Shown piece after piece: positions 55,330 to 61,781 of a stretch of 64,000 nucleotides of DNA. Made by a program: the position numbers and the translations under genes. Position 1 is the stretch's first letter. Each line of letters opens with the position of its first letter. The notes under the pieces were generated by a model, which saw only the letters and a list, made by a program, of their open reading frames with translations, ran no database searches and was not told where the DNA came from. The stretch lies in assembly GCF_057098645.1 (NCBI RefSeq), contig NZ_CM169472.1. The stretch is one strand, 5' to 3'.

Positions 55330-55695
55330 ATGGCTGTGCTTCGTACGTTACCGGGCAGAATCAAAACTCTGAACACCCGGCGGGTGAATGTCCTGAAGGG
55401 TGAACAGCGTCGGGTCAGTGGTAGTGCCCGGGTTTCCCTCAAGCGTCGTATCTGGCTGAGGGATGCCGGACAGTGCTGTCTCTGTGGGCGTGTGGTTGAC
55501 CTTTGTGACAGTGAACTTGAGCACCGCATTGCACTTCAGTTCGGTGGTGGTAATGAGGAGACGAATCTCTGGACGCTCTGTACCGAATGCCATCGACAAA
55601 AGTCTGCTCGTGAAGCGGCGAGTGGTATGCCAGACCCGACGCTGCCGGAGGTGTCCGGAGGTAGTGGCAGAGCGGACGACATCATCGGACTGTAA
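55330..55695 (+). CDS. HNH endonuclease
   Basis: Cys cluster CCLCGR...CDSELEHRIALQFGG...NLWTLCTECHRQK (HNH motif); located just upstream of the terminase genes. Confidence 0.8.
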   Translation: MAVLRTLPGRIKTLNTRRVNVLKGEQRRVSGSARVSLKRRIWLRDAGQCCLCGRVVDLCDSELEHRIALQFGGGNEETNLWTLCTECHRQKSAREAASGMPDPTLPEVSGGSGRADDIIGL

Positions 55696-55982
55696 CCCGA
55701 CCCGGGGGGGTATCATCCGGCGTAAAAAAAGATCGCTTTGGACACCGCGCCCCCTCTCATGCAGAGAAAAAATCCCGTTTCAGGCCAGTTAACATGTTAA
55801 CTGGCTGTTCGGCCTTTTTTCTGTTTTTATCTTTATTATTCAGTTTGTTGTGCGAAAAAAATGTTAACAGGCTTTTTCAGCAAATGTTAACCAGGCAGCA
55901 GTTAACATTTGCGGCATGAGACGCCGGGAAAAATGGGCTGAACCATACCCGGCTGAGTGCGTTCTGGACCCGGGAGGAGGCT

Positions 55983-56546
55983 GTGCTGACAACGCAAAAA
56001 CGAAAATTTGCGCTGGCGCTCATGTCCGGGAAAAACAAAACAGCGTCAGCCATTGCCGCTGGTTATTCGGCGAAGACCGCCAGGGTTAAAGGCTCGCAGC
56101 TGGCAAAAGATCCGGAGGTGCTTGCGTTTATAGCCCGTAAACAATGCGAGACGGTGGAGGTGGATGAGGTTCCTGTTTACCGGCAGAAAAAATCAGAGCA
56201 GGAGGATAAACCCCGTCGCCGTGAGGCGGCTGCAATACCACAGCCGGACGAAACAAATCCGGAGATGCCACCGCCCGTGGTGATATCTCCTGGTATTGAG
56301 TATATGGAGGACGGTCTTCCCGATCCGGTGAAAGCGATGGGGCGTCTTCTGGTGGAGAACATTAATACCGACCCCAGGCTGGCGCTGGATGCGGCTTATA
56401 AGCTGGCGCAGTTCACGCACCACAAAAAAGGGGATGCCGGTAAAAAATCGGCAAAAGGTGACGCGGCGAAAAAAGCGGCTAACCGTTTTGCGGTGCCACC
56501 ACCACCCCGCCTGGTGGTGAATAATGATAATGAGGGCAACGGATGA
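55983..56546 (+). CDS. terminase small subunit
   Basis: N-terminal region KRKFALALMSGKNKTASAIAAGYSAKTARVKGSQL typical of small terminase DNA-binding domains; overlaps the large-subunit start. Confidence 0.75.
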   Translation: MLTTQKRKFALALMSGKNKTASAIAAGYSAKTARVKGSQLAKDPEVLAFIARKQCETVEVDEVPVYRQKKSEQEDKPRRREAAAIPQPDETNPEMPPPVVISPGIEYMEDGLPDPVKAMGRLLVENINTDPRLALDAAYKLAQFTHHKKGDAGKKSAKGDAAKKAANRFAVPPPPRLVVNNDNEGNG

Positions 56547-60205: not shown

Positions 60206-60416
60206 GTCTGATAAGGAGGACGGGAGGCGTGCGCCTCCCGTAACAGGTTATGGCAAAGATCCGATATCTGCAGGGCACGCATGATGGCCGGGCCGGGGAT
60301 ATCCGTGATGTCGCACAGCCGTGTGCGGAGGTGCTGGTTCGCCTGAGGAAGGCGGAGTACATCACAGCGCGACGTCCGGCGGGTCAGAAAAAGAAACATG
60401 ATGCGGAGCATAGCGA

Positions 60417-61781
60417 ATGTGGAACTTTTTGCGACGAACCCGAAAAAACCAGAAATCAGGACGTGATGTAAAAGAGGTGGGCTGGACCAGCCTGTTTCAG
60501 GCGGTGGTTGAGCCCTTTGCCGGCGCCTGGCAGCAGGGTGTGAAAGCCGATCCGGAAAGTGTCCTCTCCTTTCATGCGGTGTTTTCTTGCATTTCGCTGA
60601 TATCCCAGGATATCGCCAAAATGCGGCTGCGCCTGATGCAGACGGATACACAGGGGATCCGCCGTGAAAAACGGCAGGGGGATATTGCCCGTCTCTGTCG
60701 TCGTCCCAATGCACAGCAGAATCGTATCCAGTTTTTTGAACTGTGGCTGAACGCCAAACTGCGTCACGGCAATACGGTGGTGCTGAAAATCCGTAACTCC
60801 CGGGGGCAGATCAAAGAACTGCGTATTCTGGACTGGAGCCGGGTTGAACCTCTGGTGGCGGATGACGGCGAGGTGTTCTATCGCATTACACCGGACCGGA
60901 ACTGCGGGATCACGGAGGCGGTGACGGTGCCTGCCAGGGAAGTGATCCACGACCGGTTTAACTGTTTTTTTCATCCGCTTGTGGGGCTGCCGCCGGTGTA
61001 TGCTGCCGGGCTGGCGGCCACGCAGGGGCATCATATTCAGGAAAATTCGACGTCTTTTTTCAGAAATGGCGGCAGGCCGTCCGGGGTGATTGAGATCCCC
61101 GGCAGTATTACGGAAGAAAATGCGAAAAAACTGAAGAGCAACTGGGACAGCGGGTATACCGGCGAAAATGCGGGGAAAACGGCCATTCTGAGCAACGGGG
61201 CAAAATACAACCCCACGACGTTTTCACCGGTGGATGCGCAGACGGTGGAACAACTGAAGATGACCGCTGAAATTGTCTGTTCGGTGTTCCGTGTCCCGGC
61301 CTACAAGATTGGCGTTGGCCAGCCACCTTCCAGTGACAACGTGGAGGCGCTGGAGCAGCAGTATTATTCCCAGTGCCTGCAGACGCTGATTGAGTCCATT
61401 GAACTGTTACTGGATGAGGCGCTGGAAACGGGGGAAAACGAGAGTACGGAGTTTGACGTCACCACGCTGCTGAGAATGGACAGCGAACGGCGCATGAAAA
61501 CGCTGGGTGAGTCGGTGAAAAATACGCTTCTCACGCCCAATGAGGCCCGTAAACGTGAGAACCTGCCGCCCCTTGCCGGCGGTGATGCACTGTATCTTCA
61601 GCAGCAGAACTACAGTCTGGAGGCGCTGTCCCGTCGTGATGCCCGTGAAGATCCGTTTGCGTCGTCCGGGAAAAGAGTTTCAGCCCAACTGCCTGACGGC
61701 GCATCTGACGGTAATAAGGCAATCAGTGAAACAGAGCATGGTGCGGTGAAAGCGATGTTGAGGGGGATACTGCGAAAATGA
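60417..61781 (+). CDS. portal protein (HK97 family)
   Basis: 454-aa ORF with portal-like central region; start uncertain. Confidence 0.75.
   Translation: MWNFLRRTRKNQKSGRDVKEVGWTSLFQAVVEPFAGAWQQGVKADPESVLSFHAVFSCISLISQDIAKMRLRLMQTDTQGIRREKRQGDIARLCRRPNAQQNRIQFFELWLNAKLRHGNTVVLKIRNSRGQIKELRILDWSRVEPLVADDGEVFYRITPDRNCGITEAVTVPAREVIHDRFNCFFHPLVGLPPVYAAGLAATQGHHIQENSTSFFRNGGRPSGVIEIPGSITEENAKKLKSNWDSGYTGENAGKTAILSNGAKYNPTTFSPVDAQTVEQLKMTAEIVCSVFRVPAYKIGVGQPPSSDNVEALEQQYYSQCLQTLIESIELLLDEALETGENESTEFDVTTLLRMDSERRMKTLGESVKNTLLTPNEARKRENLPPLAGGDALYLQQQNYSLEALSRRDAREDPFASSGKRVSAQLPDGASDGNKAISETEHGAVKAMLRGILRK

Follow-up and report, generated by a model that had tools for sequence, protein, structure and literature searches.

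In phage HK97 (gp74 and gp1 to gp7) the genes of the small terminase (TerS) and the large terminase (TerL) are followed by those of the portal, the prohead protease, the major capsid protein, the head-tail adaptor Ad1 and the head closure protein Hc1, with the HNH endonuclease gene at the right genome end beside cos. Genes in which protease and capsid are fused have been described in phages of Arthrobacter (clusters AM/AU/AN/AW) and Rhodococcus (RRH1) (PMC5513430; bioRxiv 10.1101/2020.01.10.891226) and in MD8-like phages of Pseudomonas (PMC8508860). Here we analysed a stretch of 64,000 nucleotides (nt) from contig NZ_CM169472.1 of assembly GCF_057098645.1 (the window), in which a protease-capsid fusion of 645 amino acids (aa) is encoded at positions 58268-60205. 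Positions 55330-63847 are almost certainly the cos-type DNA-packaging and head-assembly module of a long-tailed lambdoid Escherichia coli prophage of the Shiga toxin (Stx)-phage type, and the order of its parts is HNH, cos region, TerS, TerL, protease-delta-capsid fusion, small open reading frame (ORF), portal, repeat protein, Ad1 and Hc1. The module is known and common, since 95 phage records match it and its capsid gene was found in 1250 of 5426 complete E. coli genomes (23%), in up to seven copies per genome, and it is already annotated in public records (GenBank, RefSeq). There is one new point in the present analysis: the fusion gene appears to carry a conserved internal translation start at Met193, and therefore probably makes both a protease-capsid protein and a free capsid protein.

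The type of the module is that of the Stx1a, Stx2c and Stx2a siphophages, such as BP-4795, 2851, 1717 and Sawaravirus. Its 7.8-kb block aligns with the 95 deposited genomes at 90-99% identity, 91 of them covering at least 80% of the query; they comprise Stx1a-, Stx2c- and Stx2a-converting long-tailed phages, among them BP-4795, 2851, 1717, YYZ-2008 and Sawaravirus WGPS2. LC567819 and NC_049941 are among the records with 100% coverage at 96-99% identity, and their annotated gene lists are identical. Long-tailed Stx phages (Stx1_14040, WGPS2, BP-4795, 2851, 1717, YYZ-2008 and JLK-2012) are 92-99% identical to the window over 7.8 kb, with the same gene order and gene lengths, and their records annotate HNH/DNase, TerS, TerL, 'major capsid protein' or 'prohead protease', a hypothetical protein and, twice, a portal. 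The window copy differs from these phages in that it is a prophage at potC without stx or tRNAs, with an IS3-family insertion upstream and with a repeat protein of 461 aa.

The likeness to HK97 is one of parts. An HNH gene lies by the candidate cos region and the terminase, the S78 protease has the same His and Ser, an N-terminal helical delta domain precedes an HK97-fold capsid, portal, Ad1 and Hc1 are of HK97 families, and hairpins flank the protease-capsid gene. Identity to HK97 is 23% for TerL (against gp2, E 7.5e-12), 28% for the portal, 30% for the protease and 44% for Hc1, and undetectable for HNH. The order is different, because in the window TerL is followed by protease and capsid in one ORF, an extra small ORF, the portal and then the repeat protein. 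Among the features of the HK97 class, the capsid with its delta domain and the S78 protease are present, but the canonical TerL-portal-protease-capsid order is not. All ORFs named in the original prediction are present, at the positions it gave and on the plus strand, in the ORF listing of the window, and both the gene identities and order that it proposed (HNH, TerS, TerL, protease-capsid, portal) and the contrast that it drew with the usual HK97 order are borne out by Pfam, PHROGs and NCBIfam, which agree on the assignments across the module, together with fold evidence.

The fusion gene and its parts are as follows.

58268-60205, plus strand: prohead protease/delta domain/HK97-fold major capsid fusion, 645 aa, GTG start with an AGGAGG Shine-Dalgarno (SD) sequence (Pfam, PHROGs, NCBIfam, AlphaFold model, Foldseek).
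58268-58726, plus strand: S78 protease domain, aa 1-153, with predicted catalytic His55 and Ser110 (predicted local distance difference test score, pLDDT, >90 for aa 18-153).
58727-58843, plus strand: disordered hypervariable linker, aa 154-192 (pLDDT <50 for aa 154-189; the most gapped and variable stretch of the alignment).
58829-58833 and 58844-58846, plus strand: putative internal translation start, AAGGA, a 10-nt spacer and ATG (Met193), proposed from the sequence.
58844-60205, plus strand: putative nested in-frame delta-capsid gene, 453 aa (AlphaFold model; Foldseek; start of stand-alone capsids).

Protease and capsid occupy one uninterrupted ORF. Pfam places Peptidase_S78 (PF04586, 7e-8) at aa 48-153 and Phage_capsid (PF05065) at aa 386-635, phrog_617 matches over the full length of the protein (2.7e-258), and TIGR01554 (HK97 capsid) matches from aa 204. 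The AlphaFold model, built from a 113-sequence alignment (mean pLDDT 84.5), begins with a compact protease (aa 18-153) and a disordered linker (aa 154-189), after which come a two-helix hairpin (aa 195-262), a flexible stretch (aa 263-292) and an HK97-fold body (aa 293-645), and the modelled hairpin has the expected look of a delta/scaffolding domain. Foldseek matched the capsid part with the solved capsids of Bxb1, HK97, T5 and D3 (E down to 2e-14), and a sequence search against solved structures gave a weak match to the Bxb1 capsid alone. His55 and Ser110 are invariant in the 113 sequences and align with His65 and Ser114 of HK97 gp4, as predicted for the catalytic pair of an S78 protease. 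The ORF is also widely kept. Clustering at 90% identity puts it in a group of 9916 sequences, and Salmonella, Enterobacter, Klebsiella, Serratia, Pantoea and Kosakonia are among the genera with an orthologue of 644-648 aa. An exhaustive profile-free search returned 12,360 representative clusters with E<=1e-3, of which 1133 (50%-identity clusters) reach E<=1e-30, and about 130 of the best 150 representatives at 50% identity (38-53% identical to the window protein) are full-length, with 630-680 aa. The fusion, as originally predicted, is therefore genuine: both domains lie in one widely conserved ORF, across genera, and form two folded domains in the model.

The fused proteins of the Arthrobacter, Rhodococcus and MD8-like phages have the same layout, in which a helical scaffold-like segment links an N-terminal protease to a C-terminal HK97-fold capsid, but belong to other sequence families; that of MD8 combines a lambda C-like protease with a Mu-like capsid, unlike the window protein. 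The NCBIfam model for such proteins, NF045541 ('prohead protease/major capsid protein fusion protein'), matches the window protein over aa 49-269 only, with 53.1 bits against a cut-off of 525, and the two are different sequence families of the same architecture.

The evidence for an internal start comes from the region where the two halves of the protein meet. Met193 falls precisely where, in the AlphaFold model, the linker ends and the delta-like helix begins, and the stand-alone capsid of an unfused relative (L089; P0372), which begins MNYAEQI, aligns at Met193 (MNTGEQI). Despite the linker being the most variable part of the family, 135 of 151 representatives have a Met in the few positions leading up to the conserved E-Q-I, and among the 16 without a Met at this position ten have Val, one has Leu and none has Ile. 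The Val codon was GTG in all six cases with DNA sequence, for which Val codon usage in the respective genes gives a joint chance of 0.0166 x 0.33 x 0.20, or about 0.001. DNA was sampled from 11 lineages at 39-77% identity, and in every one of them an SD-like motif lies 6-10 nt 5' of the internal start (SD strength ranked within gene, Fisher p 6e-6), being AAGGA in the ATG lineages and in the GTG lineage L097, and GGAG or GGAGG in the remaining GTG lineages. The motif is kept as nucleotides while the amino acids change, since it is read as AAG|GAA (Lys-Glu) in the window and as aaA|GGA|Aac (Lys-Gly-Asn) in Kosakonia. In addition, the 50 nt around the internal start are among the least structured mRNA of the gene in all 11 lineages (Fisher p 1e-9). 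Taking these patterns together, we lean towards reading Met193 as a conserved internal start, from which a free capsid protein may be made beside the protease-capsid protein. The original prediction had supposed that the fusion implies autoproteolytic release of the capsid domain; this is probably only half of the mechanism, as the Met193 start suggests that free capsid is produced too.

In the lambda C/Nu3 and herpesvirus UL26/UL26.5 pairs the long product is a protease fused to an assembly domain and a shorter, C-terminally identical product arises from an internal start, the protease being delivered as a minority subunit. The logic proposed here is the same, and a conserved internal in-frame start codon with an SD motif is likewise found; the difference is that those pairs share a free scaffolding protein, whereas here the shared part would be the delta domain together with the capsid. 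From the domains observed in the protein we infer the following course of head assembly. Translation from the GTG at 58268 would yield the 645-aa protease-capsid fusion and translation from the ATG at 58844 (Met193) the 453-aa delta-capsid protein, in a ratio set by the two initiation sites. Full-length and internally initiated products would co-assemble around the portal, and the protease would enter the procapsid covalently linked to the delta domain of some subunits; since that domain faces inward, so would the protease. The protease would then remove itself, the linker and the delta domains, cutting somewhere within aa 263-292, so that a mature HK97-fold shell remains.

A serious but less probable explanation is that only the 645-aa fusion is made, each capsid subunit carrying its own protease that cuts in cis or in trans, and that Met193 with its SD motif is left over from a once separate capsid gene or is retained for protein structure. 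The fused genes of the Arthrobacter, Rhodococcus and Pseudomonas phages have been described in this way (PMC5513430; PMC8508860; bioRxiv 10.1101/2020.01.10.891226), with no mention of an internal start in these papers, and the unfused lineage shows how a relic start could arise. Several further observations weigh against a dual start. The annotated GTG start has the stronger SD (AGGAGG, -10.3 kcal/mol). The internal one in the window is moderate: at -6.2 kcal/mol it ranks 99th among 637 in-frame positions, and its spacer of 10 nt is long. Other in-frame NTG codons of the capsid gene score better than Met193. We accordingly rejected SD strength as an argument by itself, because it does not single out Met193 in the window, and the case rests on conservation across lineages. 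Even there the Fisher p-values overstate independence, because the 11 lineages are related, the open A/T-rich mRNA could simply reflect the Lys/Asn/Thr/Ser-rich composition of the linker, and Met193 could be kept structurally at the tip of the delta domain, the E-Q-I that follows being conserved as well. In a literature search on these phages neither an internal start nor virion proteomics turned up. A relic, however, would be expected to erode here, since neither the sequence nor the length of the linker is conserved, yet the NTG codon, the SD motif and the open mRNA persist in 11 of 11 lineages, and Met is replaced only by GTG-encoded Val wherever DNA sequence was at hand (six of six). This persistence is what inclines us to the dual start.

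Other explanations concern the identity of the ORFs in this part of the module, for which the genes downstream of the fusion have to be considered.

60250-60471, plus strand: small conserved gene, 73 aa (55-aa core and 18-codon extension; phrog_829, 3e-37).
60417-61781, plus strand: HK97-family portal, 454 aa (Phage_portal PF04860, 4e-81; TIGR01537, 2e-106).
61778-63163, plus strand: repeat-containing protein, 461 aa, with an ATGA overlap with the portal (translationally coupled; sequence and model).
63160-63486, plus strand: head-tail adaptor Ad1, gp6-like (PF05135, 1.4e-7; phrog_40).
63497-63847, plus strand: head closure protein Hc1 (PF05521, 6.7e-17; 44% identical to HK97 gp7).

Many prophage genes in enterohaemorrhagic E. 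coli (EHEC)-type genomes are pseudogenes, and a sister prophage in strain RM13514 has several 'frameshifted' genes and is without HNH and lysis genes, from which it might be supposed that the fused ORF arose by decay in a defective prophage, through a lost stop codon or a frameshift, and that its product is non-functional. This is hardly credible, given that an ORF of 644-648 aa is kept across genera in a cluster of thousands, that the same ORF is present in inducible, sequenced Stx phages, and that most of the distant representatives, as stated above, are full length. An exchange of the domain assignments, with 58268-60205 as the portal and 60417-61781 as the capsid, would have given the normal HK97 order; the domain annotation proposed as a check in the original prediction rules it out, since by Pfam, PHROGs, NCBIfam and fold search the protease and capsid hits fall on the former and the portal hits on the latter, with nothing in favour of the exchange. 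As for the portal and the downstream 461-aa ORF, they could be regarded as a single portal gene of 860-915 aa, broken by a frameshift or read by -1 slippage on A-AAA-TGA: the Prokaryotic Genome Annotation Pipeline (PGAP) calls the pair in RM13514 'phage portal protein, frameshifted', phrog_2271 (859 aa) covers the two ORFs together, fused proteins of 723-784 aa are found in a few cases, and a run of four A precedes the stop codon. We consider this very improbable, because the 454-aa portal clusters have thousands of members whereas the fused forms are singletons, the ATGA stop/start overlap is kept at 51 of 51 junctions despite flanking substitutions (these being near-identical E. coli copies from viral contigs, with little diversity), and relatives at 67-70% identity have separate portals of 444-452 aa followed by ORFs of 347-350 aa.

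With protease-capsid and portal so assigned, the gene order of the window is found to be shared by its relatives. Kosakonia and Klebsiella prophages, whose portals are 67-69% identical to that of the window, have HNH, TerS, TerL, the fusion, a 55-aa ORF, the portal, a 347-350-aa protein, Ad1, Hc1, and gp10-like and gp17-like genes, and in metagenomic relatives at 39-53% identity TerL is followed by the fusion, one or more small ORFs and the portal, an order seen in loci L004-L007, L091, L092, L093, L097, L098 and L099. The unfused lineage (L089/L090) has TerL, a protease of 209 aa, a capsid of 465 aa (52% identical), a 76-aa ORF and the portal, with 32 nt between protease and capsid; in L089 (2772-9021) TerL is unusually long, with 851 aa. 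Because this lineage has the same order, the placement of protease and capsid before the portal does not depend on their fusion, and fused and separate architectures are both viable. The order is a habit of the family and not a requirement of the HK97-class mechanism. In two distant clusters (P0243 and P0252) a protein of 1091-1094 aa has an AAA+ ATPase domain ahead of the S78 protease and the HK97 capsid; at one such locus (L099, 3047-6331, P0243) the context is TerL, a NikA-like ORF, the ATPase-protease-capsid protein, a 116-aa ORF and the portal, and P0243 has kept the internal AAAGGA-ATG signal where its capsid part begins.

The 73-aa ORF overlaps the start of the portal gene by 55 nt, as originally predicted. 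Its first 55 residues are 53-56% identical to the 55-aa ORFs that Kosakonia and Klebsiella have in the corresponding place, which together with the phrog_829 match rules out a chance ORF. In those genera the stop codon overlaps the portal ATG (TGATG or TAATG), whereas in the E. coli lineage the stop TGA/TAA has become GAA at 60414-60416 (..AGC GAA TGT..), adding 18 codons that run into the portal gene, and the 73-aa form is present in all but one of 81 E. coli-type loci with a complete ORF. By these comparisons the ORF is a real, conserved small gene that has lost its stop. The overlap had led the original prediction to treat the portal start as uncertain, which is not upheld: M1-W2-N3 and many later residues are invariant, at the same start position, in seven portals of 67-75% identity, and for this reason the start is the ATG at 60417, and a start downstream of the 73-aa ORF is ruled out.

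The protein encoded after the portal has a long N-terminal helix, 54-aa repeats and a C-terminal beta domain with an end resembling carbohydrate-binding module (CBM) families 5/12. The repeats are encoded as 162-bp tandem units, 4.3 copies in the window, and E. coli copies of the protein have 299, 353, 407, 461 or 569 aa, differing by whole 54-aa repeats, 407 aa being the commonest; a distant homologue has collagen-like repeats instead. The structural model is of low confidence (pLDDT 69), and fold search gave coherent hits for the CBM5/12-like C-terminal end only, the rest being noise. It is a reasonable guess that the protein is a portal-proximal or capsid-surface fibre. In public records the protein appears as 'portal protein' or 'gp6-like head-tail connector', and in the PGAP annotation its ORF and the portal gene are joined into one 'frameshifted' pseudogene; the names 'portal' and 'gp6-like' for the product of 61778-63163 are wrong.

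Upstream of the fusion gene lies the packaging part of the module.

55330-55695, plus strand: HNH endonuclease, 121 aa, with a CxxC...H...N...CxxCH motif (Pfam HNH PF01844, 5e-6; phrog_589, 9e-43).
55697-55800, no strand assigned: candidate cos core, non-coding, in the HNH-TerS gap (proposed from conservation and from its position, as cos in HK97).
55784-55912, no strand assigned: five copies of an (A)ATGTTAAC / GTTAACAT motif in both orientations (direct and inverted repeat families).
55983-56546, plus strand: small terminase TerS, 187 aa, GTG start (Pfam Terminase_2, 1.7e-8; phrog_641, 1e-68).
56543-58204, plus strand: large terminase TerL, 553 aa (Pfam TerL_ATPase and TerL_nuclease).

HK97 gp74, an HNH protein, stimulates TerL cleavage at cos (PMC9410871), and HNH genes adjoining cos and the terminase are common (PMC3592412). 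The layout of the window agrees with this, a small HNH gene lying immediately upstream of the candidate cos region and TerS-TerL as in HK97, and the counterpart gene in RefSeq NC_049941 is annotated 'HNH endonuclease'; the role of cos-cleavage partner proposed for such a gene in the original prediction is thus a documented one. By analogy with HK97, HNH and TerS/TerL would cut concatemers at a cos site within the 287-bp gap between HNH and TerS. A block of about 100 nt in this gap, CC-G7...GATCG...GGACACCGCnCCCCnCTCAyGCAGAGAAAAAATCCC...AACATGTTAAC, is nearly invariant between the modules of E. coli, Kosakonia and Klebsiella, in which the encoded proteins share only 67-77% identity. In E. coli only, an insertion of about 190 nt follows the conserved block and carries four further copies of the ATGTTAAC motif, of which the Kosakonia and Klebsiella relatives have a single copy, overlapping the TerS start codon. 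The repeated ATGTTAAC/GTTAACAT motif may represent possible binding sites of the small terminase. Against the analogy with HK97, BLASTP detected no similarity of the window HNH protein to HK97 gp74. A search for cos by likeness to the HK97 ends found only a shared G-run and ATCA, which is not significant, and none of the matching phage records begins at cos.

Two hairpins bracket the capsid gene.

58229-58256, plus strand: terminator-like hairpin and T-run between TerL and the capsid gene (fold energy -10.7 kcal/mol).
60220-60241, plus strand: GC-rich hairpin directly after the capsid stop codon (-18.9 kcal/mol, z -3.5).

The same GC stem and T-run precede the capsid gene in the Kosakonia and Klebsiella relatives, in which the structure of the second hairpin is also kept at the same place with a differing sequence (compensatory change). 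The HK97 record likewise has 'putative terminators' flanking the protease-capsid pair (genes 4-5). One may speculate that the hairpins set capsid expression apart from that of the low-copy neighbours.

The chromosome that carries the prophage is of an O145:H28-like E. coli (lolCDE-nagK-cobB-potD-potC), and the integration site lies next to potC. A prophage at the same potC site in O145:H28 strain RM13514 (L003; NZ_CP006027.1, 1405600-1445000) is without lysis genes and HNH, has a Q antiterminator and two tRNAs followed directly by TerS, and includes several tail genes annotated as 'frameshifted'. Compared with it, the window copy is more complete. The window prophage is a mosaic, its head module being 99% identical to that of an Stx1a phage and its early region matching PPompW-type phages. 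Upstream of the lysis genes the prophage contains an IS3-family insertion on the minus strand (47167-48380; a 108-aa HTH_Tnp_1 ORF and a 296-aa rve ORF). The ORF at 49764-51614 encodes a 616-aa DUF1737/SASA/DUF6645 esterase, which we take to resemble NanS-p, a protein whose gene in Stx phages typically lies downstream of stx. Between 46500 and 55300 no ORF of the size of stx was seen, and ARAGORN found no tRNA in the whole window. Just upstream of HNH, and at the same place in Stx phages, is a 61-aa DUF3950 ORF on the minus strand (55103-55288).

As a feature of the genome the locus matters little, being the standard head module of a common prophage type. For its annotation the analysis settles the portal start, explains the small ORF by stop loss and corrects the 'second portal' and frameshift annotations. 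Database names are inconsistent, the fusion being recorded either as 'major capsid protein' or as 'prohead protease', and with the wrong names and the PGAP frameshift flag on the portal and repeat protein an intact prophage can appear defective. Between HNH and TerS, the conserved non-coding block offers a concrete candidate cos site for the long-tailed Stx phages. Regarding the family as a whole (more than 1100 50%-identity clusters at E<=1e-30), a reading that is not described in the searchable literature has, in our view, slightly better than even prospects, namely that the so-called protease-capsid fusions are in-frame nested gene pairs rather than simple fusions. The dual start, if true, would give a simple answer to the question of how phages with a fused gene avoid having one protease per capsid subunit.

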